Shown piece after piece: positions 3,654 to 62,568 of a stretch of 64,000 nt of DNA. Positions within the stretch are counted from its first letter, which is position 1. Every line of letters begins with the position of its first letter. Made by a program: the position numbers and the translations under genes. Below the pieces are notes generated by a model. That model saw only the letters and a list, made by a program, of their open reading frames with translations. It was not told the DNA's origin and did not search any database. This DNA is from Eledone cirrhosa (Eukaryota), in contig OZ024740.1 of the NCBI GenBank assembly GCA_964016885.1, forward strand, positions 232,190,001-232,254,000. Reading direction: 5' to 3'.

Positions 3654-3864
3654 GGATAGCAAGAGAGGGAGAGAGAGAGAGAGATCAGGGTTACCAGTTT
3701 TAAACTATATAGTAGAGGTCTCGTTACTTGTGATAGTACGGTGTAAATATATTAAACTGTCGGGGCGCGACCGTTAAGCTCTTGCTGCTTGGACACCTAA
3801 TTGCAGACTTAAAATTTGCTGCCGAAACGGCAAAATCTTACCCATCGGATCCCGGATTTCTAAT

Positions 3865-4118: not shown

Positions 4119-4334
4119 CAAAGTTTGTTTTATAAATATTGACATATCTAGGAATAAGATCTTAACAGTTCAAGTTTTTCCAGAACACACACATATATAG
4201 AGATATTTTTCACTGCTACAAGGGATTAATCCCCTTTCTTGACCGGTGTATCGCGTGATAGAGTCTCCCTCCGCCTTTCTGAGATTTTCTCGCATGCTTC
4301 GGACGTATATAGTTAGGCCTCTTCCCTGAGGTGC

Positions 4335-4425
4335 TCCCTTGATAAGCTGGCTTACATCAAAACAATGTTACATATCTATGACATAACATTTTTCCATAGT
4401 GACCAGCGAAACTGTACAGTCGGGA
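4335..4425 (+). ncRNA. Type I hammerhead ribozyme, U3-A8 variant core, GUC site at 4419-4421
   Basis: TCCC-TTGATAA-GCTGG-(52 nt insert)-CCAGC-GAAAC-TGTACA-GTC-GGGA. Confidence 0.8.
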
Positions 4426-4927
4426 CCAAAGAAAAAATAGGTATATTGTATCTATTATTTCTTTTTACAATATTTTACATAACTCTGATATTGTGTCAAT
4501 TTAATTATTTCGATTATCTTGTCTCATAATCATAGAGCAACACTGGTTAAGGTCGACAACATACAATCTCACATACTTGTGAAAAATATATGTTTATATA
4601 TACATGTATATGTATGTATACACATATATCTGTATACCTAAAGTAGAAACAATTATTGTCTCTAACTCCCTCACGGTAGAGTAACCACGGAAGTATAGTG
4701 ACTGCTTTCAAGCAAACACTATATACACTTCTAGTCAACCTTACCACCCTTCTGTAGCCTATGTATCATATCAATATCGCCCTCCGCCTTCTGAGATATT
4801 TTTCACTGCTACAAAGGATTAATCCCCTTTCTTGACCGGTGTATCGTGTGATAGAGTCTCCCTCCACCTTTCTGAGATTTTCTCGCATGCTACGGACGTA
4901 TGTAGTTAGGGCTCTTCCCTGAGGTGC

Positions 4928-5018
4928 TCCCTTGATAAGCTGGCTTACCTCACAACAATGTTACATATCTATGATATAACATTCTTGCATAGTGACCAGC
5001 GAAACTGTACAGTCGGGA
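4928..5018 (+). ncRNA. Type I hammerhead ribozyme, U3-A8 variant core, GUC site at 5012-5014
   Basis: Second copy; core and stems I-III identical to the first, substitutions only in the stem II insert. Confidence 0.8.
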
Positions 5019-5063
5019 CTAAAGAAAAAGATAGGTATATTGTATCTATTATTTCTTTTTATA

Positions 5064-5110
<47 letters not shown>

Positions 5111-11801: not shown

Positions 11802-12009
11802 TAATCGTATAATACTGATTTGTCCTTTAGTATTCTCTATGAGTGGTGTATAAACGCTCTACCCAAAATCTCCATCATAATTTCTGAACCCAGCACGAAA
11901 TTTAAGGAAGTTCAGCGCTAACCGGGTTCTTGCTAAGAACATGGTTTCAACGAAATATCCACGTCATCCACATATAGACTATTCATGATATCGCTCGCGC
12001 GCCTATAAT

Positions 12010-12196
12010 TGTTTCTACGTTAGGCACAAGGCCAGCAAATACCCAGTGCATTACTGGTACTTTATTTTATCGACCCCGTAAGGATGAAAGGCAAAGTTAA
12101 CCTTGGCGGGATTTGAACTCAGAATGGCAAGGGCAGTAACTCTATACGTCAAAGCATGGCGTCCGACCCTCTACCAATACTGCCAATCCACCGCCC
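12010..12196 (-). mobile_element. tRNA-derived SINE (family 1), full length
   Basis: A box TGGCAGTATTGG, B box GAGTTCAAATCC, central GCCTTTCATCCTTACGGGGTCGATAAAATAAAGTACCAG; 18 bp TSD 11992-12009/12202-12219. Confidence 0.9.
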
Positions 12197-13013
12197 TCCT
12201 CCGCTCGCGTGCCTATAATGTTAGATATAATGTTTATTAAATACGATTAGATACGTTTCTAAATAATAAATGTTTATAATGACAATAATGATATAATGAT
12301 TATATTGCAGTAAATTATATGATTGTTTAATATTGGAATAGACATATTTAAAACAGCGTAGCACGAGGCAGTGGGAAGAGAAAGCGTAAGAGAGACAAAG
12401 AGAAGAAAGGAAATACGTGGATATAGGGAAAGACATACAGAGAGGAGATAAAAAGTGAGAGTGATACATGAATTGTTAAGGGAAAAGAGAAGTATAGACA
12501 AATGTAGAAAAGACAAAATAAGAAATAGAAGTGGGGAGTGAGAGAAGGGGGCTTGGGAGAAAGAGAGAGTGAAAGAAAGAGACAGACAGTCAGACATGAA
12601 AGAGAGACGTAGCTTTGCAGTTCTAACAGCGGTGAGGTTACGTAAACCAGAAGCCTTGACAGGAAGTCGGATTTCTGCTTGTCTCAGGAGACCGCTTATG
12701 TCAAAGCATGAACAAAGAGATAAGCTTTATCTCCCTTGATTGCTATCCTCCGCCCTGGTCGAATAAGCTATCAAAACGAGAAGATTAGCCCTACGGTTAA
12801 CGGAAACTAAACAGTGAGTGGAAATAAAGTTAAAAACTGTGCTAATTGCATTAGAACGAATATTTTGTGTTATCAGAACGGCAGTAAAATGGCCACATAG
12901 TACAGACATACACAGAAAGGCTCTCACGTATACACAAACACAGAGGAAAAAAAATATATATATATACACACATACATATAAACATACATATATATAAGTA
13001 TGTACATGTGTAT

Positions 13014-14667: not shown

Positions 14668-16400
14668 GTTTGTATATGTATAATAAAGCCAAAACAATGC
14701 AGGTATGGACATAGAATAAAGAATGCAAATGCAAAAGATATTGTTGACAACTAGTCTTTTACCTTAGATTTATTTAAATGTCCTAAATTTTCGAGATAAT
14801 ATCTCTTCTTCAGAGGGAATAAACTTGTCAAACCAGTGTTCTAAATAGCTTGCCAAGTCATCCTGTCAGCATGATTTGATAAAGAATTGAATATTAGCTG
14901 TATACTTTGTGAAATGTTTTATGGAATTTATGCAAGCAGATAGAAAACAAGTCAGTGCGTCTATTTATTATAGAATCTAAATTAGAAATAATGGTAAATT
15001 TTCATTTAGACATAGATTGCAAATTTTTGATAGAGAACTGTTCAAGTATGTAGACGCAGAAGAAACCTTCTTCCAAAAGATGCTATATTTAATATTTTTG
15101 TCTTTCAAGGACCATATGAGTTCTGAGAGAGCCGTGTTGGTTCTTTTAAGTTTGTATTTAAAAGACGAATGATGGTTATAAAGACGAGCTTTAAAAGAGG
15201 TGGAAGTGGTGCCAAAATAGGTGAAGGAATTGGTGTCAGTTATAACTTTACATTCGTAAATTAAGTTTTTATCAAGACAATGGTTGTTGAGAGGACATTT
15301 ATTTTTAATAGGGCAATTGCAATTGCGATTAGAGAGATTATTAATGAGTGACCTAGTGTTATCTATAGAAGGAATTGGATTGGAGAAGTTATTTGCGATA
15401 GGAATAATAGTTTCTTGATTTAGAATGGGATTAAGAACATTTAGCGAAGTTGTGTTTGACGTTGTATTGGGGTTTGTAGAAATTAGCCTAGGGTTTACAA
15501 TGACGTCGGGAGTACTATTATTATGATATTCAGTGTTGGAAGGAAGAGATTTAGTATTTAGTATTTTATTGTTGTGTTTAGAGATAATGTTGGAAATGTT
15601 GGAGGATGTAGAATAGGAAAATTTTATAGTGTGTTAAATATTTTACTATAGATATGTGAGGGAGGGAAGCATTTATTTAAGGCACTAAAGAATAATTTAG
15701 GAATATTGTTATTAATAGAGATGGAGAAAGGAGCATAATACCAGATTATGTTTTTGTATCTAGGTCTTTTATTAAAGTTATTGGAATGATCATGATTAAT
15801 TATTCTACTGTAATTTTTTCTAGAATTTGTTTCTTTACTATATTTAATTTTATCAGGATAGCCGGCTTTAGAAAACGCGTTATTATAGTAATTGGCGTTA
15901 GCATCAAAGATGTTTTTATTAGAAGATAAGTTAGATATTCTTTTTCCAATATTACTAACTATAGCATTCTTGATATTAGTAGGATGGTTAGATTTAAAGT
16001 TAACATAATTTAGGTTCTCATTGTTTTTATGGTAAGGGTAATATAGGCCAGTGTCAAGATTAAGAGATACATCCAAGACATTAGCTAGTTTGATGCTGTT
16101 ATCAAATTCAATTTTTAAGTTATGTTGGTTAAAGAGATTACGTATATTGTTCTTAATAATATTAAGGTTAACTATGTTGCAATTTAAGATAGTAAAGAGT
16201 CCATCGTCACGATAAATTCCACCGCGAAGTTGAGGAATTTTCCGACTGAAAGAGTTCAAAATAAAGATACCAATTAAATCTGTCAATTGGGATGAATCGG
16301 ATGCTCCCATTGTGATGTCGAATATTGGACCAGAGCCGATACCTCTAACATATCTGCATTGCTTTATTGTACTACAATAAAACTCACCTCCTACACACAT
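14662..16400 (-). mobile_element. 5'-truncated Penelope-like element (YRDDG-type RT plus C-terminal GIY-YIG), one frameshift near 15630, stop at 14866-14868
   Basis: FDITMGASDSSQLTDLIG, GGIYRDDGL, FKSNHP; shifted frame gives CNCPIKNKCPLNNHCLDKNLIYEC...TYFGTTSTSFKARLYNH...CNLCLNEK; TA repeats on both sides. Confidence 0.9.
14782..14816 (-). ncRNA. Minimal hammerhead ribozyme in PLE 3' end
   Basis: Reverse complement CCU-CUGAAGA-AGAGAUAUUAUCUC-GAAAAUUU-AGG; loopless palindromic stem III. Confidence 0.6.
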
Positions 16401-16401
16401 A

Positions 16402-16461
<60 letters not shown>

Positions 16462-16647
16462 ATTTAGGTGGTTGATAGCTTCTTAACCACCGTCTCAGTT
16501 TGTATGGCCTTTATAACATATGTTTATTGCTCTGGTCTCTTTTGGTCCATCGAGCGCTTGCCAGACAAATCGGAAATTGAGTTTTTCTTATTTCTACCCG
16601 CCGAAATACGATTCGCGCTGAATTTATGTTTATATACATATATATAC

Positions 16648-21975: not shown

Positions 21976-22056
<81 letters not shown>

Positions 22057-22613
22057 GTTTGTATATGTATAATAAAGCCAAAACAATGCAGGCATGGACA
22101 TAGAATAAAGAATGCAAATGCAAAAGATATTGTTGACAATTAGTCTTTTACCTTAGATTTATTTAAATGTCCTTAATTTTCGAGATAATATCTCTTCTTC
22201 GAATGGAAGTAAAGCAGTTAAACCAGTGTTCTAAATAGCTTGCCAAGTCATACTGACAGGAAATGGTATAGAGTATCTGTTCTATCTCTAATGTCAAAGA
22301 GTTAAGGTAGGTGGATAAAGAGTAGTCTCCCTTTAAAAGGTTTTTTTTGTTGTACATGCCTGTTTAAATGTGTGGGAGAATGCATGAAGGTGTAAGTATG
22401 TGAGTGTGTGTGTGTGAGAGTGAGAAGATATGTCTATACGTAAATGTGGGGGATAGATGTTATCTCGTGTTAGAACTGGTCTTTGTGTGTGTATGTGTGT
22501 GTGTGAGAGAGAATAAGTGAAGGTGTAAGCGTGTGTGTGTGTGTGCGTGCCGTCGTGTGTGTGTGCATGTGTGTGTGTGTTGGATGTGTGTAAATATGGG
22601 GCTAGAAGCTCTA

Positions 22614-22982
22614 TCAAGTTATAAATTGGGTGTTCAGTTCTAGTCTATTATTGATTGGTGGTCGTGTTTTGTCTATAATTATTGCTTCCTTAATTCTAAG
22701 ATTGCCGAGGTTTCTTTCCTTAGTTTCTATCCTAACTGTTATGGTTTTGTCGGTGTTTTTGCATTTAACTAGGTGTTTCTTAAATGAGGAAGCGTTAGTA
22801 TTGAGGTGTTCTTTTATTCTTATCTGGAGTGGTCTGGTAGTGCTACCTACGTAGAAGTTGCTGCATTCGTCACACTCTAGTCTGTATACGACGTAAGCCT
22901 GGTGGCATACGTCTGTGTCGTTGATGGGGCAGTTGGCTAGCCTGCAGCAGTTGTCATGTCTGGTGGAGTGTCTTTTGGACAA
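22614..22982 (-). CDS. Open GIY-YIG endonuclease domain in the inverted arm (element fragment)
   Basis: CRLANCPINDTDVCHQAYVVYRLECDECSNFYVGSTTRPLQIRIKEH...LRIKEAIII...PPINNR. Confidence 0.75.
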   Translation of the reverse strand: MSKRHSTRHDNCCRLANCPINDTDVCHQAYVVYRLECDECSNFYVGSTTRPLQIRIKEHLNTNASSFKKHLVKCKNTDKTITVRIETKERNLGNLRIKEAIIIDKTRPPINNRLELNTQFIT

Positions 22983-25333
22983 ACGATCACTTAGTTACAT
23001 TCAAAAATTCTGCCTAAGAAAACTCATACAACACCTACACTGCACGCTACAACAACACATACGGACTATTTCCAGCCTTGTACCACAACTCGCTGAAACC
23101 CCAAAACCTCTGTCCAGAGTTATCTCCGCCGCTATAGACAGGTCGTACCACCATCGCCGAGACTACGAGAAAATACGCCTAGCGCAAACATTTCTCAAAC
23201 TCAGCACGGCTAACCGTCTTAACAACATCCCAACTCTAAGCACGAATAGAGGCGAACAAGACGGTACCAACACCGAATCTAGCGGCGCCCCGACCAACAA
23301 CACACCTGACGCAAAACACCTCGTCACAGACTTGACAAGATCCCTCTCCCGAAAGGAATTAGACCTCCTCAGCCTGGGTCCCAAGTTCATATTGAAACAG
23401 AGACTGGACGACAAATTATGGCTCGACATAGAAACGAATTTCTGTCGGGCTGCCTACCAACTAAAATGGATATCGACTCTCGGCAACAATACCATGGAAT
23501 CTAACAAACCCAGATTCCCGATATACCAACTGGATCACCCACCCTGTCCACCGCCTGCCAACCGCGAGCTTGAAGAAAAACTCTCGAGGCTAAAACATTC
23601 CGTATTTAACATCTTACGGAAACAGAAGAAGATAGCCCCAAACCTCTCCAGGACACAACAACTCGCCCTGAAGAACCTACGGAATAGGGAACTTATATAC
23701 TTACCATCCGACAAAGGTAAAGAGTTTTGCGTCATCTCTCAAGCCACATACAACAACCTAGCCTTTGAATACCTAAGCGACAATGAATTATATACAGAGA
23801 TCCCGGACATGACTGCAGCCCAGAACTAAAAACAGAACAACTCCATCTGGTTCGATATCTGTAGGAGAAGACAAATCCCAAATAAAGTTAAGCACAACTA
23901 CACCACTAGAAATAGCAGACTGCCCACTTTCTACCACCTCATCGAGACCCACAAGAATAGTACTAAGACGCAAATAAGACCCATCGTCTCTAGCATAGAA
24001 GGACCCCTATACAAAATTTCCTGGCTCCTCTCCCAGGTCCTCAAGCCTCTACTCTCCACCTTTCCCGGGCATGTCAGTAGCTCCGACGAAGTTATACGTA
24101 GACTACACCAACTCCAGCCAGAACAACTTAAACTAAATAGATACGCCTTTAGCCTCGACGTTGTCTCCCTCTACACTACAGTCCCCGCTCATCCAGCTGT
24201 CGATTTATTGATAGACTGCGTGGTCGCAGAGGACATCCACTGCTACGGCCTCCATCCGACGGACATACACCAGCTTTTGTCCTTCACAGTGGATAACACG
24301 TACTTCACCTTCCACCACCACACATACAGACAGACAACAGGATTACCCATGGGATCCAGCCTATCGGGCCTGCTGGCCATCACCTATATGAACCAGCTAG
24401 AATGCCGAGCCCTCAACACCTGCCATTCCCATACCTTCTTCACCCGATATGTAGATGACATACTCATCCGTACAGCATCCCGTGAGGAGGCAGATAAAAT
24501 ATACACAACATTCTCCAGCATGGACGCCAGTATAAAGTTCAGCATGGAACACCCCGATGACCGCGGATCCCTATCCCTACTGGACTTCCAACTCAGGGTA
24601 ACAGAGGAATGCAACATCCACACCTGCTTCTATAAAAAAGCCGCCAGCAGGGACCTGTTCGTACATTTCAGATCGGCCCTCCCAGCCGGCGCTAAGTTCG
24701 GATACATAAGGAACGAACTACGCGTATCCGGTACAAATGCACCGACGCTAGAGACCGAGACACACACACCACACATTTCCTGGAAGTACTCAAACTTAAC
24801 GGATACACGACATCCACCATAAACCGTGCCAGAAAGAACAGAGGACACCACACCCTAGGCACTAACACTTGCTTCCTGAAGCTACCACACTTCAGTGACG
24901 AAACAACAACAGCCATCCGCAGAGCTATCAGACGAGAGGGACTAGATATCCAACTGGCCCACTCAGGTCCTTCTCTACGCGGACAGCTAACCAAAAGACA
25001 CTCCACCAGACATGACAACTGCTGCAGGCTAGCCAACTGCCCCATCAACGACACAGACCTATGCCACCAGGCTTACGTCGTATACAGACTAGAGTGTGAC
25101 AAATGCAGCAACTTCTACGTAGGTAGCACCACCAGACCACTCCACATAAGAATAAAAGAACACCTCAATACTAACGCTTCCTCATTTAAGAAACATCGAC
25201 AAAACCATAGCAGTTAGGATAGAAACTAAGGAAAGAAACCTCGGCAATCTTGGAATTAAGGAAGCACTAATTATAGACAAAACGCAACCACCAATCAATA
25301 GTAGACTAGAACTCAACACCCAATTTATAACTT
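22983..25333 (+). pseudogene. PLE RT-GIY-YIG polyprotein, disrupted by in-frame TAA at 23827, frameshift near 24722 and a ~19 bp deletion near 25196
   Basis: Track ORFs 22915-23829 and 24208-24822 are one frame interrupted by a single stop. Confidence 0.9.
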
Positions 25334-25939
25334 GATAGAGCTTCTAGCCCCATATTTACACACACCCCACACACACACACATGCACACACACACACACGC
25401 ACGCACACACACACACACATGCTTACACCTCCACTTATTCTCTCTCTCACACACACACATACGCACAAAGACCAGTTCTAACACGAGATAACATCTATCC
25501 CCCACATTTACGTACAGACATATCTTCTCACTCTCACACACACACACATTCACATACTTACACCTTCATGCATTCTCCCACACACTTAAACAGGCATGTA
25601 CAAAAAAAAACTTTTAAAGTGAGACTACTCTTTATCCACCTAACCTTAACTCTTTGACATTAGAGATAGAACAGATACTCTATACCATTTCCTGTCAGCA
25701 TGACTTGGCAAGCTATTTAGAACACTGGTTTAACCGCTTTACTTCCCTCCAAAGAAGAGATATTATCTCGAAAATTAAGGACATTTAAATAAATCTAAGG
25801 TAAAAGACTAATTGTCAACAATATCTTTTGCATTTGCATTCTTTATTCTATGTCCATACCTGCATTGTTTTGGCTTTATTATACATATACAAACGTTTAT
25901 ACCTCATTACACAATGCTTCAAGTGAACTATAACCTCCT

Positions 25940-25984
<45 letters not shown>

Positions 25985-26096
25985 TGATTGGAACTTCTGG
26001 AAGGCAATTCAAATTAATGTAATGTCGCATATACGTTTATTTGTTGTGAAATTCTTGGTCGGAGCTAATCGGACAAATACCCGACTAATCGATAAT

Positions 26097-26880: not shown

Positions 26881-28837
26881 ATCTTTATTTATAATTTTCA
26901 TTCTCTCACATTCTGGAAGACATTGACTGTACTCAGACCTGGTGAGTCATGAGCTCCACCAGATTTCAATTTCACGCTGGGGCTCGTATGATTCCATCAG
27001 AATGTCAGGGCCCTTGGCTGGATTGTTAATCTTTGAAGATACTCTGCCAAAGAACAGAACAGAAAAAGTTGTTGTGAGCTATGAAATGATAATTGGTGAC
27101 TTACAGGAAACAGCTCTATGCTATAATTATGTGACTAAAGACTAGATGTTGTTGCTGTTGTTATTTAACTCCAGATCAACTCTGAGTGTGGATATAGGAC
27201 CTCCGTCGGTTCTGATGATAAATGTTTCAGTTGTTGGAACAACAGAACATACTGCTCCTGAAATTAACGTACAAGTCACTGAACATTGCATAGACACATG
27301 CATTTTTAACATAGATAAAGATTCAGCTATGTGTGACAAGGCTGGCTCTTTGAATTACAGGTAAAAGGTTGTTGAGTTGCCTGTTGAGTTATCGTGAAAT
27401 AACATATTTTACTCAAGGACAAAACTAAACGATAAAAATGGAACTCACAACCATACCATCACGAAACAAATATTATAACTATTAAGCCATCAGCCGTCAC
27501 AGGAATTTGAGCCATGACCACTAGTTTCTTATATAGGCACAATGCCATTACCACTAGGTTACGCTCCTGAGTAAATTCATAGTCAATGGCATTTTCTCTT
27601 TATTTCAGGTAATGCATCAAATACTATACTATCAAATGTCCCTTTTAAAGAAAATGGTATAGAAAAATGTGAGGGCGATTTGATTGCTATATCTAACAGA
27701 TCACACTAATATATAGAGCTTTCCTCGTTGATTCACACTTCAGGTGTCATATTCTTATGCGTTTCCCATATCAGCTTTGATTTAGCAGATCTATGATAAT
27801 ACACGTTTTAGTCTTGTTCACTCTTTTTGTATATCCAGGAGAATATTCTCCAATGTACTCATTCCGAATTCAAATCGGTAGCATGTCATACGAAGGATAT
27901 TTGACTGTTATTTCTAATGAATCAAGTGGTTTTGTAGGCGCTTTCTTTCTTGCACACAGTAATCATGTAGTTCTTGCTTGTCACACTAAACCGGGTCGAC
28001 TACTTGGTAACTTTGATATTGCAGCATGCTGGTTGCAATGATGTAACATAGAAAGTGTAAGAAATTATATTCTAATTGAATTAATTATCTACTTCCTGTA
28101 TTTCTGCTAACGAACTTAGCATGTTAAAAATTTTGAAATTTCAGCATTGTAATTATGTAAATTAAATTAAAATTAAAAACGCTCATTCGTATTTGTTTCA
28201 TTAGCTATTTTGAGGCTCTGGTATTTTATGAAATCAGCGAAAATATAAGTTTGTTTTATATCTGATAATTATTTTAATGATATTATATATTGCAGCTAGG
28301 GTGGGGTGAAATATACGAAGTTATACTGGCAAACAATTACCTACTTGCTAACCCAACAAGTGGCGAAATTTTCAAAAACATTATTAGATGTTTTTCATGA
28401 TCTCCGAAAGTTCAAAGTTTCAAAATGCTAACTATATATTTTCAAAAACTAACTTCTCAAACAACATATGACAACATATTAATTCCTATAATACAAATTA
28501 AATACTATATGAGGACAGAAATGATCCTTTCGGAATGACAAAGAAATGTTGCTATTTTAACAGACCCACAAAGAAAATCGTTCTAGCTTTGTTCATTCCT
28601 TATTTTTATGTATTTGGGATTAGATTGCCAAATATGTCGTTATTTTAATATAATAGTTGGGTATGGTTTGCCTTCTATTTCGAGCGACCATGAAAATTTC
28701 ATCCGTTGGAAATTCTAAAGAAAAGTGGTTTTCAATTGTAAAATGACTCACAAGAATCATACAATCCCAAGCAATCCTTGGTTGAAAATTTACTAAATTA
28801 AATAACAAAAAAGTAACATTAATGTTATATCCTCCAA

Positions 28838-29022
28838 GGGCGGTGGATTGGCAGTATCAGTAGAGGGTCGGACACCATGCTTTCCAGCATAGTTACGTCC
28901 CTTTACGATCTGAGTTCAAATCCCGCCGAGGTTGACTTTGCCTTTCATCCTTACGGGATCGATAAAATAAAGTACCAGTAATGCACTGGGTAATTGCTGG
29001 CCTTGTGCCTAAAGTAGAGACA
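28838..29022 (+). mobile_element. tRNA-derived SINE (family 1)
   Basis: Family match; 18 bp TSD ATTAATGTTATATCCTCC. Confidence 0.9.
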
Positions 29023-29842
29023 ATTAATGTTATATCCTCCTATACTGTTTATTTTTTGGTTGAGTTCCGGTCAGCCACAGCTCGTTTCTCCATAACCATA
29101 TATATTCCTTAGTAAATAATAATCAAGTTCTTTTCAATAAGAGCACTTACACATATGTTTGCAGTTTGTCATTTTTATTCAGAGTTTGTCATTTTTATTC
29201 ACAAATCAATTTGTCATTTTTATTCACTCTTCCTATGAATGCTATAATCTTAAAACTATTCGTAGCGTAGCAAAAATGACCCAGTGTGCGTAGCTTAGGT
29301 TAAAATACTAAATTCATAACCGTGTATATTATGTCCATCTAATTATTACACTTTATCAAATACAGAAAATAGTTAACCACACAAGAGACACTGGCTAATA
29401 AGAAAGGACTAATGCTTCCGAATACTTCAAATTGTCAACAATCAAAGACAACTGACACATACGGAATCATTATATAGACGCTTGATCTGCTATAAATAGT
29501 AAACAATCCTGCCTCAATTCAGTCATTGTCAATTCACTACTTATTAAAGAACAAACGTGTTTCCTCTGAATATGGAAACCTAGCTTTATCGCATCTGTTC
29601 TTCACTAAAATAAGTTCTCAGTTGTTCACTTCACATTTTTCGGTGATTCATGAAAAAGGTTTGTCTCTATAATTCACCGGTTATTCTTCATTGATAAGGT
29701 GATATCCGATGGAAGTTACACGTCAGATTCTAATAGTCCAATAGATACTCGTTGCCTGTTCAAAATCTTTCTTTGAGTCCTCCAATGGTAATCTTTTAAT
29801 TACAAGGTTTACAAAAATTGAGAAAACATTAAAGTAAAGACA

Positions 29843-44290: not shown

Positions 44291-44492
44291 AACAGCTACT
44301 CTTATTAACAAACTAAACGGTGCATACAAAACCTAAAATTAATGCAGACAATGTTATACACTCTACAACAAAGCTTATTTTATCGCACAAGAGTATTTAA
44401 ATGTTATTAATAATTAGAGATGGTATTAACATAATACGATTCATCATAGGGGTGTATATGAAAGCATATACAGTATGATTATGTATAACTAG

Positions 44493-44679
44493 GGCGGTGA
44501 ATTGGCAGTATCGGTAGAGGGTTGGATGCCATGCTTTGATGCATAGAGTTACGGCCCTTGCCATTCTGAGTTCAAATCCCGCCGAGGTTAACTTTGCCTT
44601 TCATCCTTACGGGGTCGATAAAAATAAAGTACCAGTAATGCACTGGGTAATTGCTGGCCTTGTGCCAAAAGTAGAAACA
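44493..44679 (+). mobile_element. tRNA-derived SINE (family 1)
   Basis: Family match; 15 bp TSD ATTATGTATAACTAG. Confidence 0.9.
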
Positions 44680-44842
44680 ATTATGTATAACTAGATCACC
44701 CCTGACCCGTTGGCTCACGTTCACTTCTAAATATTTTTTAAAAATCATGTTCACTTAGAAATAATTTTTAAATAATTGAAATATACACAGACATTTGTAT
44801 AATGTGAAACGAAACTGGAAGCCCCATATATATACGTGTTTG

Positions 44843-47214: not shown

Positions 47215-48106
47215 AAGAAATCGTAACAATAGACAAACTATATACCTTCTCACTCAACGTTAAATCTAATGTAGGTAAAAATTGTTAAGCCCTCTTAGAT
47301 AGACACTTTCCCATAGGTCACAAATACCGCTCCATCTTTAACAGCCACAGAGTAAAACTAGGGTACTTCTGCGCTAAGAATATGAAGGCCGACATAAACA
47401 ACAGTTCTAAGAGCAGCACCCCACCAGGGTGCTCTTGCCAAAAATCTGAGGCTTGTCACCTTCAACAGCAATGCAACACAGCAGCCGTAGTTTATGACGC
47501 TGTGGTCACTTCCAACCGACCAAATCAATCACAGGAGGTCAAATCCTATGTGGATATGGCGGAGGGCCGTTTTAAGGAACACTTCATGAACCATCAGTCG
47601 ACCTTTAGGTACCTGTACAAACGATCATCCACGAAACTCGCGAGCCACTATGGTCCTTCAAGGACTCAAATATAGACTACTCCATTCAATAGAAAGCCAT
47701 GACTAAGTCCAAGCCATACGCAAGGGGCAATCCGTCTTTTGGACTGTGTATTGATGAACGGATAAATATTCTAAGGAGATAGCCATTGCCTGAACTTATG
47801 AAATGAAATCTTCACACGTTGTCCTCATGTCTGGAAACACCTCTTGCATAACTACAAAGCTCCGGATTGAATAACAACAGCATTCTAATTGTCTTATCAA
47901 CTCGAACTACTTTTTGGACTTTCGCAGTTATATCCCTTACACCTTTCGCCCGTGGCGTTGTATCGCTTCACTGTAGTGACCGTTTCTGCGCATACGTGTT
48001 CATGCACTTATTCTTCCTATTCCGTATAACCATGACCAGTCCGAGCTGAAGATCCGCCAAGGTGAAACAATTGTTCTCGGTGTGGTGAACTAACTGTTGT
48101 GTTACT

Positions 48107-52699: not shown

Positions 52700-54240
52700 A
52701 AATAGTTATACTTGGGGAGGGTCTACACCCAAAATGAGGGAGCAGCCATTGGCGTCAACATAACTGGTGACGTTGCCAACCTTTTTATGGTATAGTGGGA
52801 AAGGAGACTCAAATAGCTACTTGATGAGAGCTCCATAGACCTCATCATGTACTCTCGTTACGTAGACGACATTAATATAGTAATAAGGACATCCCCACAA
52901 GAGAGTACTAACAAGTATGATTTAGAATGTAGCACAATGGAAAGCATCCAGCAGATAGCTAATTCCATACACCAGAGTATAACTGTAACTATCGACTACC
53001 CTTCAAACACCGTAACAATAGACTACATGTATTAGACACGGAACTCTGGATTAAGACTATAGACGAGAGAGCCCAAATTCTCCACTCACACTACGCTAAA
53101 CCCATGCCCTCCAGATACCCGATACTCAGCAATGTCCAGTAGTGCTAAGTTTAATATTCTGATCGCAGACTTGGTACGAGTGATGAAGAACGTGTCCCGC
53201 ATGTGCGACCCAACAGAAATGGAAAGACACATCCAGCACTTCATCAACCGTATGCAGTTCTCTGGCTACAACCAAAGAGACATAATCAGAGTATACGAAG
53301 GAGCCACGGAGAAGTATAGGACCCTCATAGAACTGGACATGAAAGGAATGTCCCCGTTATACAGGAGCAAAGCATGGAATAGCTTAGGTAGGATTAAACA
53401 TGAGGTAGGGAAAGCCACCTCATGGTACGACAACCAGAGATACCAGAGTGTCATGTTCGTGGACGCAACCCCTGGAGGAAAATTAGCTAACCAGTGTAGA
53501 AAGGCCCCGAGAAAGACTCACTTAAAATTAAGGTGGTAGAAAAGCCAGGAACCACCATAAAATCCCTGATCAGCAAAACATAACCTTTTAAGAAAACCCA
53601 CTGTACTAATAGGAAATGTGTTATATGTAAAGTAAACCCCCGGATAAACTGTAAAACCAGAAACGTAGTCTATAGCATAAGATGTACAGAGGGTACTTGC
53701 AGAAACATGACAACAACATACATAGGCGAGATAAAAGGATGATAAAACGGTTCAGTACTATACGAACACGCCAGACACAACATGACGGTAACATAGACAA
53801 CATAGAAATTAAAATAATATCTAAACATAGAAATGACCCAGCAGATAGGCAAATCAGAGAGGTCAGTGAAATAGAACTTAGAAGGCCAAAGCTAAACAGA
53901 AAAAAATGAAGGGAAGAACAACCATACCCAAACCAACAATACTGACCTAAGAGAAATATAAATAAATAAATAATTAAATACATACACAAGCACAATAACA
54001 ACAAACACACATAAACACACACTTGTAAGCTAAGATAGAATACAATAACCAATGCACAGTCACTAAAACGTGAACACACATCAAACACTATACTCACACG
54101 CAAACGCATGCGCAGAGAAGACAAAAATAAATAAATAAATAAACAGATTAAATAAAGATGGCGTAGATAGATATACAATACAACAGGAGGAAACATAATA
54201 GCACCACTGACGATGTTGCAGATGTGCAACGAAAAAAATT
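52700..54240 (+). mobile_element. 5'-truncated, disrupted Penelope-like element (third lineage)
   Basis: YTQNEGAAIG, YSRYVDD, AKFNILIADLVRVMKN..MQFSGY..PLYRSKAW, VMFVDATPGGKLA, CTNRKCVIC..NCKTRNVVYSIRC..YIGE; HHR core CTGACGA-TGTTGCAGATGTGCAAC-GAAA at 54207-54234. Confidence 0.85.
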
Positions 54241-57319: not shown

Positions 57320-57394
57320 ATTATATTAACACTATATCTGCATTACGCTTGTCGCTTAAATATCTACCGCAGTATTCGAGCTGAATATAATAAC

Positions 57395-57580
57395 TGTTTC
57401 TACTTTTGGCACAAGGCCAGCAATTATCTCAGTGCATTACTGGTACTTTATTTTATCGACCCCGTAAGGATGAAAGGCAAAGTCAACCTCGGCGGGATTT
57501 GAACTCAGATCGTAAAGGGACGGAACTATGCTGGAAAGCATGGCGTCCGACCTTCTACCGATACTGCCAATCCACCGCCC
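57395..57580 (-). mobile_element. tRNA-derived SINE (family 1)
   Basis: 19 bp TSD TCGAGCTGAATATAATAAC. Confidence 0.9.
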
Positions 57581-57893
57581 TCGAGCTGAATATAATAACG
57601 TTTTAATTTGTCCAGTCCCAGAGAGATTTCGAAGATCAATACTCCTCCTTCTCCTCCTCCACCTCCTCTTCCCCCTCCTCCTCTTCCTCCTCCTCCTCCT
57701 CCTCATCATCATCATCATGTTCATTATCATCCACATCATCACCACCTTTCTTGACCTCTTCTTTTCCTCCACTCTCCAGAGAAAGATATTAAAATATAAC
57801 TCCCATGTGTATATTCAATCGACATTTTATATAAACACAGATGCCAGCAACACCCTACAAATACACATACGTATACACAAACACACACACGAG

Positions 57894-58681: not shown

Positions 58682-58803
58682 ATATATATATTTATGAAAA
58701 AGTTTAACCCCGACGGCAGAGCTCAAGCCGTTTCGACGGCTATTTCTGGATTGAGTACTCTGGTGCGTTATGGTCCATCTGGTTCCTTACCACAACTCCT
58801 TCG

Positions 58804-58846
<43 letters not shown>

Positions 58847-59077
58847 GGAACACACAGATACATGCGGACACACACATATATACATGAATGCATCCGCACC
58901 CAACTGTGAGTTAAGGGTGCCAACTTCACCGATGTTGCTCAATGAATGACTGGGACAGACCAATTCAGTTTGAACCAGACTGAACCAGTATCAGAGTTAA
59001 AAATACATTATGAAGAGAGAAGAAACATTTAGATATAATTAGTAATAAAATGTATCATACCTAAACTGCTCCTAAAT

Positions 59078-59165
59078 TCCTCGACTACGTAGTTTCGTGG
59101 CATAAACAAAAACAATATATCAAAGATATAGAGTCCCTGCGAGGTCTGCCGACTTATCAAGAGGA
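59078..59165 (-). ncRNA. Type I hammerhead ribozyme, U3-A8 variant core (homologue of 4335-4425)
   Basis: Reverse complement UCCUC-UUGAUAA-GUCGGCA-(insert)-UGCCAC-GAAAC-UACGUA-GUC-GAGGA; upstream 59200-59300 resembles 4205-4290. Confidence 0.8.
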
Positions 59166-59548
59166 TACCTCATTTTACTAGTCTCAAGAACGCGTCCACA
59201 CGACGTGAGAAAGAATCCCAAAAGGCGGAGGGGGAGATAGTCACGCGATATAACGGTCGAGAAACAGAGCTAAGCCTCTTATAACCACGAAGAAAATACC
59301 ACGGAGGCGTATATATATATATATAGAGGTTATCACATACATAAAATTAAATTAAATTAAATCAATGATACATATATGTGTTGCAACTGTTCACTTTTAA
59401 GCTCAATGAAGAATTAATAAGTTAAAATCAAAAAATCAGAGCATTATATCATAAAACGTGTCTATATCTATATATATATATATATATATTAGAAAGTGAG
59501 GTTTTTTTTTTAAACAAAATGAAAAATAACCGAGGTGTCCTACACGAG

Positions 59549-60839: not shown

Positions 60840-61393
60840 CCTCCTACACAAAAATCTCCCCATTCTATTTAAAGATGAAAAAATGAAAAAAATTCTAGAA
60901 ACACAAGATCACCAAAAGCAAAAGGCAACCAAAATCACTAAAAATAATTCTCACTGGAACAAAGATACACAAACCTATCTCCAACCTTACGGTAATAAAA
61001 TGCAGAAGAACAAACTGTGGAACATGCCTATACTTAACTGAAGGACATAAATTCACGTTTAAAGATGGCCAAACTTTCACAGTGAAAAACAACTTCACTT
61101 GCCACTCGGAGAACGTGATCTATGTAATCACATGCTGTAGCTGTCGACATAACTATATAGGTCAGACGGGGTTGTCATTACGCGAAAGAATGACCATCCA
61201 TCACCAACAAATCCGAGACGTAAACACAAAGAAAATCACCTTAAGTAGCCACATTGCAGATTGTGCAGGAATGACCCTACCCAACTTTAAAATCTTCCCC
61301 CTTCACAAGTACTCCGATTCTTTCACTCAACAACAAAGAATAAATAAGGAAAAACTATTTATTAACAAATTTAAACCAAAACTAAATATGTAA
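60840..61393 (+). mobile_element. 5'-truncated PLE GIY-YIG endonuclease fragment (Neptune-like)
   Basis: NFTCHSENVIYVITCCSCRHNYIGQTGLSLRERMTIH...RINKEKLFINKFKPKLN. Confidence 0.9.
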
Positions 61394-61489
61394 TCACCAC
61401 CATTAGATCCCACACCCCACACACACATCATAAAATAATTTTTAGCTTTTTTTCTGAATTTTTTTGAAAAAAATGTTAAGATTCTCACC

Positions 61490-61548
61490 ACAAAGGGACC
61501 TGTGACAGACAAACTGAATCGCCCCCCCTTCCCATATACGTGCGTTGT

Positions 61549-61581
<33 letters not shown>

Positions 61582-61935
61582 CACAGAATAAGAGAGAAAG
61601 AATTACTCATTCCAGAAGTTACTGTCCGAGAGCCACTAGTGATACTCTACTCTGGGCTTTTGAATTTTTGATTTTGAGAATCATTTGGATTTTGAAAAAA
61701 ACATTTTATAGTTTTTCTGAATTTTGAAGATTTTTTATAATAATTTTCCCCCACAAAGAGACCTGTGACAGACGGACGGACCCCCCACCCTCATTTTGAA
61801 GGAATCTTTAAGTTTTGGGAATGCTTCTGAATTTTGAAGAACATTTTTTTTTTATTTCCCACCACAAAGGGATCGGTGACAGACAGGCTGAAACATATGT
61901 GTGTATTGCTAAAGGGACTGTGACAGACAGGCTGA
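61490..61935 (+). repeat. Four diverged repeats of AAAGGGACCTGTGACAGAC
   Basis: Motif near 61492, 61755, 61866 and 61911. Confidence 0.6.
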
Positions 61936-62379
61936 AACACACACACACATACACGTGTGTGTGTATTGTTATATATACACCTTCATACACTATATATTTA
62001 CACACACTCCCTAAAACCATATTCCAATAATAGAATTTCTCTTACACTCCTGCTACTGTCATAGAATTTACCTCTAGCTTACAATTCGCTTTTGAACTTT
62101 TAACCAGTCAATTAACACAATCAAATATACACACACATATTTACAGGATGTTTCCTTGGCCCCCAAAAAATAACTTTGTTCGGTGAAGAAACATACTGTG
62201 AAGAAATATGCTATCTTCACTACCACCTCTCTATTAACAAGAACTCATTCTCCAGCCCAATTTTGAGCAAGACAAAGGGAAAAAACTTACTCCAACATTT
62301 GATTATAATTTTAAATCTTTAATTTTTAGTTTTTAACTCCTATTAATTCTTTTTTTAAATTTTGTATTTCAATACTCAA

Positions 62380-62423
62380 TATTTGATAAGATGAATTTTA
62401 ATAATACATCGAAACCGGTAATA
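62380..62423 (+). ncRNA. Minimal hammerhead-like motif with U3-A8 core
   Basis: TAT-TTGATAA-GATG(13 nt)CATC-GAAAC-CG-GTA-ATA; stem I is only 3 AU pairs. Confidence 0.55.
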
Positions 62424-62568
62424 CTTTATATACATTATAAAACTTATTTTAAAAATAATTGTCCCTCTCATTTTTTCAATAATGTCATCTTTTCAATAAT
62501 GTCACTTTGAGGAATCAAAGAAAGGATAACAAAAGAAAATCAGACCCTTAAATATATTTCAGACTTCA

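Follow-up and report, generated by a model that had tools for sequence, protein, structure and literature searches.

The 591-nt non-coding repeat analysed here carries a conserved type I hammerhead and is probably a non-autonomous retrozyme copied by Penelope-like enzymes, with a hammerhead that is predicted to cut as a dimer and to be braced by a likely pseudoknot. A truncated copy and an older relative are located in the window, i.e. the whole 64,000-nt stretch of Eledone cirrhosa DNA that was analysed, and thousands of dispersed copies were found by searching the 3.0 Gb genome. At the DNA level, the features of a non-LTR retrozyme were recovered for the unit, namely repeats, no coding frame and dispersal that bears the marks of retrotransposition. 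Comparison of the copies indicates a real, selected hammerhead fold in a young retrozyme, the ribozyme activity of which is predicted from sequence. Selection acted on the source RNAs of the mobile element and not on the copy in the window or on the host.

The copy in the window has a length of 472 bp (Table 1). It comprises monomer positions 365-591 followed by positions 1-245, numbered from the cut site, and is 99% identical to the young 591-nt subfamily. TA repeats flank it on both sides and its 3′-end at +245 lies in a TA run. A sequence-only reading of the window had placed the motif correctly, but the span it gave (59040..59305) falls short of the element, which occupies 58838-59309; the retrozyme context and the likely pseudoknot had also escaped this reading. 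Its description of the minus-strand motif as a relative of the 4.2 kb repeat was borne out by 241 identical bases out of 350 aligned (69%), and the upstream segment is similar in both copies as well (match at E 4e-6). Intermediate subfamilies link the 59 kb copy to the 4.2/4.8 kb copies, in which the hammerhead cores at 4339 and 4932 are 593 bp apart. The upstream block kept across subfamilies is possibly an internal promoter or a protein-binding site. A twister ribozyme reading of the CCCUCCGCC blocks was dropped, since there was no Rfam match and the blocks lack the conserved elements of twister. Moreover, a splice-donor-like GT was observed about 15-25 nt past the cut site in the retrozyme family (59062-58985 on the minus strand of the window) and in three other families with a long helix II. 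In older subfamilies, a pyrimidine tract ends with UAG at about +85, which is lost in the youngest, where a CAG is found 17 nt further on (by eye). By eye, this stretch after the hammerhead resembles the short retained intron of Penelope elements. Additionally, short elements with a GCCG-GAAA-CGGC-type hairpin were seen inside TA runs at 58690-58804 (-) and 3770-3860 (+), as was an interspersed repeat of about 195 bp, probably a SINE, with a dozen or more copies in the window (e.g. 12005-12198, 28837-29035, 44491-44689 and 57385-57581).

Table 1. Positions of the retrozyme copies, their predicted functional elements and the Neptune-type fragment in the window
Feature	Position	Strand	Remarks
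Older sister subfamily	4200..5075	+	1.5 tandem units of the 593-nt monomer; ends at its short fixed end in (TA)n
Retrozyme insertion, single-arm, 5′-truncated	58838..59309	-	472 bp
Upstream block kept across subfamilies	59242..59258	-	CCCUCCGCC block just downstream
UGAGGU	59167..59172	-	predicted pseudoknot 5′ strand
Helix I 5′ strand UCCUC	59161..59165	-	read 59165-59161
Catalytic core UUGAUAA	59154..59160	-	U3...A8
Domain II	59097..59153	-	57 nt; bulged helix IIa, asymmetric internal loop, long hairpin IIb (59139-59107)
Helix II (IIa) strands GU(C)GGCA / UGCCAC	59153-59147 / 59102-59097	-	
ACCUCG	59140..59145	-	unpaired in internal loop; predicted pseudoknot 3′ strand
GAA, palindromic helix III and C17	59083..59096	-	GAAAC 59096-59092; palindrome ACUACGUAGU 59093-59084; C17 59083
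Predicted cut	between 59083 and 59082	-	
Helix I 3′ strand GAGGA	59078..59082	-	
Short fixed 3′-end (+80) position	59003..59012	-	used by other copies; putative second start site of reverse transcription
Long fixed 3′-end (+245)	58838..58850	-	continues into (TA)n
Neptune-type Penelope fragment (GIY-YIG)	60899-62500	+	own U3-A8 hammerhead, core at 62383

A pattern of core, long spacer and GAAAC-N6-GTC gave 7,782 matches in the genome, compared with 22 when the pattern was reversed as a control. The genomic matches to the 59 kb copy were 99-100% identical and often 591 bp apart, and those to the 4.2 kb copy were 85-96% identical. A frequent match outside the family is a different repeat, which by eye looks like a Helitron-like coding stretch. 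Decay from a CUGAUGA family had been named beforehand as the origin that would speak against a genuine U3-A8 ribozyme family. Counted together with the family flank, UUGAUAA occurs 7,076 times, CUGAUAA 10 times, UUGAUGA 7 times and CUGAUGA 0 times; UUGAUAA (U3-A8) is the family state and not a decayed CUGAUGA. Scattered core mutations are present in individual copies. In the oldest lineage U, A and G all occur at position 7, the only position of the core that is known to vary freely. The longest stop-free stretch measures 86 codons in the young monomer vs 72 codons in its older counterpart, hence there is no protein-coding frame. The units form head-to-tail arrays with one type I hammerhead each, arms reach up to 5.1 units consisting of monomer only, and no Penelope-type RT/GIY-YIG ORF was found between the repeats of the retrozyme arrays. 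Two out of four sequencing runs of unknown kind gave single self-closing contigs of 620-621 nt, which would fit an RNA circle as well as a collapsed tandem repeat.

The boxes of a type I hammerhead, (C/U)UGAN(G/A)A, GAAA and UH, are present around three helices with helix I open, and include the U3-A8 swap. As the sequence-only reading had stated, UUGAUAA, GAAAC and GUC are the same in the minus-strand motif and in its plus-strand relatives, the stem I strands pair in both (UCCUC/GAGGA and UCCC/GGGA), and stem III differs yet is palindromic and paired in both; its palindrome has withstood four changes between the two families. Stem II was likewise said to differ and yet pair, which is the case; however, a true compensatory swap exists at only one pair (10.2-11.2, U-A vs C-G), while the remaining differences are a bulge or a change of register. 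The insert in stem II is retained as claimed, with about 44 nt at 59 kb and 52 nt in the 4.2 kb copies, lengths that follow from a domain II of 57 nt and 62 nt, respectively. Rfam scans gave no hammerhead match to the motif and only low-complexity miRNA matches, probably due to the long domain II and the variant core. Segments of 103 nt folded no better than shuffled sequences (z -0.2 to -0.8), and together with the Rfam result this means that the case rests on comparison. The sense-strand monomer circles folded better than shuffles (z -5.9 and -6.4).

In an alignment of 22 copies, 91% of the cells were paired and 12 of 33 pairs had changed on both sides. Since the control for this alignment ignores relatedness, changes were counted on a tree of subfamilies. 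For this, 217 distinct copies were assigned to 14 subfamilies with 2 to 84 copies each, and the test was performed with 13 of them, one noisy 3-copy group being left out and one alignment gap being moved by hand. No change was counted at sixteen core positions and two changes were counted at N7; of the flank columns, 52% are invariant. The eight pairs flanking the core are 100% paired in every one of the 13 subfamilies, and same-branch double changes in these pairs were counted 5 times on the full tree and 9 times on the flank-only tree, numbers reached in 0-1 of 1000 neutral simulations in each of four settings. Compensatory changes in the genomic homologues, the test of covariation proposed beforehand, are thus above a phylogeny-aware null. 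Four of the five double changes lie between two subfamilies, F (L136, L137) and D1 (L129, L134, L135), which differ at only 12 of 106 flank columns, so that the independent events may number only 2-3. The difference between the F and D1 hammerheads suggests a swap of the module between families. For the long hairpin IIb, double changes were not in excess (P 0.42) and pairing amounted to 87% vs 75% (P 0.04), i.e. the hairpin is kept loosely. Helix IIa was not recovered by RNAalifold, because its register shifts between subfamilies. Altogether, a core that is invariant except for N7 and compensating stems across the 13 subfamilies argue for selection on a U3-A8 fold with enlarged domain II, as had been proposed.

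In the fold of the enlarged domain II, a short helix is followed by an asymmetric internal loop and a long hairpin. The 5′ strand of the loop, ACCUC(A/G) (ACCUCR), is complementary to UGAGGU just upstream of helix I, and judged by this complementarity the internal loop likely pairs with the 5′ flank as a pseudoknot, which would stand in for the usual contact between loop I and loop II. When domain II was folded, the 3′ strand of the pseudoknot stayed mostly unpaired in all seven examples, and the duplex has -7.3 to -8.9 kcal/mol. The central 4 nt of each strand are invariant in the 13 subfamilies; within the retrozyme family the pseudoknot is conserved without covariation, and the outer pair becomes A-G in one subfamily. 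Three other families combine a long domain II with the canonical core (C3-G8), namely X (L213, L290), Y (L228, L283) and Z (L278, L218). Each of them has, with different sequences, a long helix II, a palindromic helix III and complementarity between flank and loop; the flank/loop pairs are GAGUUU/AAACUC, GAGAAU/AUUCUC and GGAAAAU/AUUUUCC and are located at similar offsets. Among 120 permutations of five family representatives, the cognate pairing ranked first, although one of the five does not pair. In the test of flank-to-loop pairing, the shuffle P was above 0.08 in 5 of 14 representatives, and the intervals searched were chosen after four examples had been seen, with three of the seven fetched later pairing (P < 0.04) and four not.

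The energy of helix III was calculated as +1.5 kcal/mol for a hairpin and about -13 kcal/mol for a 10-bp dimer duplex. Its four loop bases change together from GUAC to ACGU with the palindrome intact, and helix III is also palindromic in the representatives of the three other families; relatives with another base at helix III position 3 were searched for and none were found. Persistence of the palindrome through four changes and in three other families favours dimer cleavage, and the hammerhead is predicted to cut as a dimer. Since a hammerhead-competent monomer fold lies within about 1 kcal/mol of the minimum and three pairs plus the tetraloop can close helix III, dimer dependence is put forward here as what we infer. 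Dimer-cleaving Penelope hammerheads were reportedly described by Lunse et al. in 2016. For Penelope hammerheads, the model in the literature is cleavage as a dimer through a palindromic helix III (PMC4209133; review PMC6765202; here and below, statements on the literature refer to the available parts of the cited sources). In vitro, eight of nine Xenopus retrozyme dimers were without cleavage and one was cleaved (bioRxiv 2026.07.22.740005). The hammerhead could instead act in monomeric form with no pseudoknot, in which case the long domain II would be an insertion that is tolerated. The closable helix III and the competent monomer fold would permit this, as would the missing compensatory change in the pseudoknot inside the retrozyme family, and an axolotl hammerhead with a 2-bp helix III showed 22% cleavage as a monomer (PMC7229834). 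However, the tetraloop has remained palindromic through four changes and in three other families, and the flank-to-loop complementarity recurs with other sequences at similar offsets; we give a monomeric hammerhead only a very slight chance.

The insertions were surveyed at 83 loci, which consist of best matches and first-listed pattern matches and are not a random sample. At these loci, the 117 arm 3′-ends cluster at two distances from the cut site, with 58 ends at or close to +80 and 53 at or close to +245, and 104 of the resulting 111 ends at the two fixed sites run into TA repeats. Two arms arranged head to head are present in 42 insertions, of which 39 combine a short end with a long one and none carries the same end twice; two identical ones at L276 (G000:C1:19619974-19623827) are 2.55 kb apart and represent a local duplication, which leaves 41 and not 42 independent events. 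The ends of the older lineage were used qualitatively only, since alignments break at an insertion in the window's monomer and make their counts unreliable. The copies are dispersed and 5′-truncated, with inverted arms and fixed 3′-ends, as is characteristic of retrotransposition. A dead satellite amplified at the DNA level, with the motif as a relic, would account for tandem arrays and for scattered core mutations in individual copies, but not for dispersed, truncated and inverted copies that end at two fixed sites in (TA)n, nor for subfamily changes that preserve the fold; this explanation is largely refuted and its remaining probability is negligible.

The insertions run through the cut site and neither start nor end there, from which it follows that the template was an uncut multimer or a circle. 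No enrichment of arm 5′-ends was found at the cut site, with 2 of 117 within 3 nt vs 1.2 expected. A surplus of such ends directly at the cut site (6 of 119) had been produced by the alignment and was no longer seen when a concatemer served as query. In the proposed mechanism, the arrays would be transcribed into multimers, in which two hammerheads would swap their helix III strands and cut the multimers into monomers, and the monomers may be ligated into circles. A Penelope RT/endonuclease would then nick both strands of (TA)n, and cDNA synthesis would start at two internal sites and copy through the cut site on the uncut multimer or circle. That insertions cross the cut site also fits a different role of the fold, which may have been selected as a structure that binds the Penelope protein or sets the start site, with self-cleavage being weak, protein-assisted or irrelevant to spread. 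An anole Penelope hammerhead cleaved only in the presence of protein, and its catalytic mutants were still inserted (PMC11167929), and minimal Penelope hammerheads show low in vitro activity (PMC4209133). Yet every catalytic position is invariant here while the free N7 varies, and the helix III palindrome is kept, which is the pattern expected from selection for catalysis. A fold selected for protein binding or for setting the start site, with little or no part for self-cleavage, is considered unlikely.

As to its origin, the unit could be a detached pseudo-LTR of an autonomous Penelope element, the hammerhead having been selected there. Xenopus retrozymes match Penelope pLTRs (bioRxiv 2026.07.22.740005), the insertions are built like those of Penelope elements, and older subfamilies have, by eye, a short stretch resembling an intron behind the hammerhead. 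This origin is nevertheless very unlikely in our view, since arrays of up to 5.1 units hold the monomer only, no coding frame is present and no homology to the single autonomous family examined was detected. A candidate helper for the retrozyme is the Neptune-type element, a fragment of which lies in the window (Table 1) with its own hammerhead that has a short helix II and a palindromic ACCGGU. Related genomic copies have long open frames, including one open RT/GIY-YIG frame of 1,176 codons, and an RVT_1 match (E 7e-7) was obtained in one of two Neptune-type frames. In these copies position 7 of the U3-A8 core is A, and the two 3′-ends lie in (TA)n with a distance of about 36 nt between them; helix III is palindromic in the hammerhead of the element with the 1,176-codon frame as well. 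Sequence homology between the hammerhead region of the monomer and the Neptune loci was not found in this comparison with one autonomous Penelope family. Further Penelope-like sequences were observed in the window: a remnant at 21980-25985 with RT and GIY-YIG matches and an inverted 1-kb arm, and remnants recognised by eye and without Pfam match to RT or GIY-YIG at 14977-16463 (-), 47289-47675 and 53063-53539.

The unit resembles metazoan non-LTR retrozymes (Cervera and de la Pena 2020, PMC7229834; Li, Clavereau and Pollet 2026, bioRxiv 10.64898/2026.07.22.740005) in its non-coding, AT-rich head-to-tail repeats, one type I hammerhead per unit, thousands of copies and the presence of Penelope elements alongside, and such retrozymes have been tied to Penelope pLTRs (bioRxiv 2026.07.22.740005). 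It differs from them in the U3-A8 core, in a domain II of 57-62 nt instead of a short helix II, in a likely pseudoknot instead of loop-loop contacts, and in being known here from genomic DNA. With 591 nt it is longer than the 170-400 nt given in one report (PMC7229834) and within the 51-972 bp of the other (bioRxiv 2026.07.22.740005). Penelope hammerheads are also of type I with a short helix I, a palindromic helix III and proposed dimer cleavage (Cervera and de la Pena 2014, PMC4209133). The U3-A8 variant was found in about 1,300 Schistosoma Penelope hammerhead matches, and the helix II bulge seen here is shared with Drosophila virilis Penelope (PMC4209133). Their helix II has 6-8 bp and a simple loop, whereas a two-helix domain with internal loop and no attached ORF is found here. 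Many hammerheads have a pseudoknot that connects domains I and II and is required for fast cleavage, and pairing between the helix I and helix II regions replaces the loop-loop contacts in about 40% of the set of Perreault et al. 2011 (PMC3088659), who also report natural covariation to U3-A8 and cite it as active in vitro. Unlike in those hammerheads, the predicted partner strand belongs here to an internal loop that interrupts a long helix II midway. In this dimer-type retrozyme it would pair with the flank on the 5′ side of an open helix I.

Penelope insertions (Frangieh et al. 2024, PMC11167929; Craig et al. 2021, PMC8557442) share the AT-rich or (TA)n targets, partial tandems, an inverted 5′-truncated arm and two internal start sites downstream of the hammerhead. 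In contrast to these, the ends are 165 nt apart here instead of the usual 30-40-nt tail, and no protein is encoded. The anole Penelope protein used two internal start sites and extended both strands in vitro, and hammerhead cleavage was dispensable for insertion in that system (PMC11167929). No account of this family or layout was found in the literature search, which covered the available parts of the sources; similar motifs with a long helix II may be contained in the supplements of PMC3088659, PMC4209133 and PMC7229834. The U3-A8 core, cleavage as a dimer, the pseudoknotted hammerhead, the retrozyme and the Penelope tail have each been described on their own, and the value lies in finding them together in one abundant and very young family whose subfamilies form a graded series. 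Rfam and descriptors restricted to a short helix II or to CUGANGA miss the motif.

What deserves testing most is the likely pseudoknot and the precise rule for the start sites. Natural compensatory variants across the graded subfamilies provide a test of a pseudoknot formed from a helix II internal loop, and the strict rule of one start site per arm, with sites 165 nt apart, would offer a precise test substrate for Penelope twin priming. The exact start sites also allow a test of whether a Penelope enzyme moves retrozymes, which the literature, in the parts available, infers from co-occurrence and homology. A more tentative proposal, to which we assign somewhat less than an even chance, is that a recurrent architecture exists in at least four families with different sequences and combines a long helix II, a pseudoknot between internal loop and 5′ flank and a palindromic helix III, together with a dimer requirement that spares circles and the rule of one start site per arm. 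If the dimer requirement is true, multimeric transcripts would be cut and the monomer circle spared, which would answer how the circles of animal retrozymes avoid cutting themselves.
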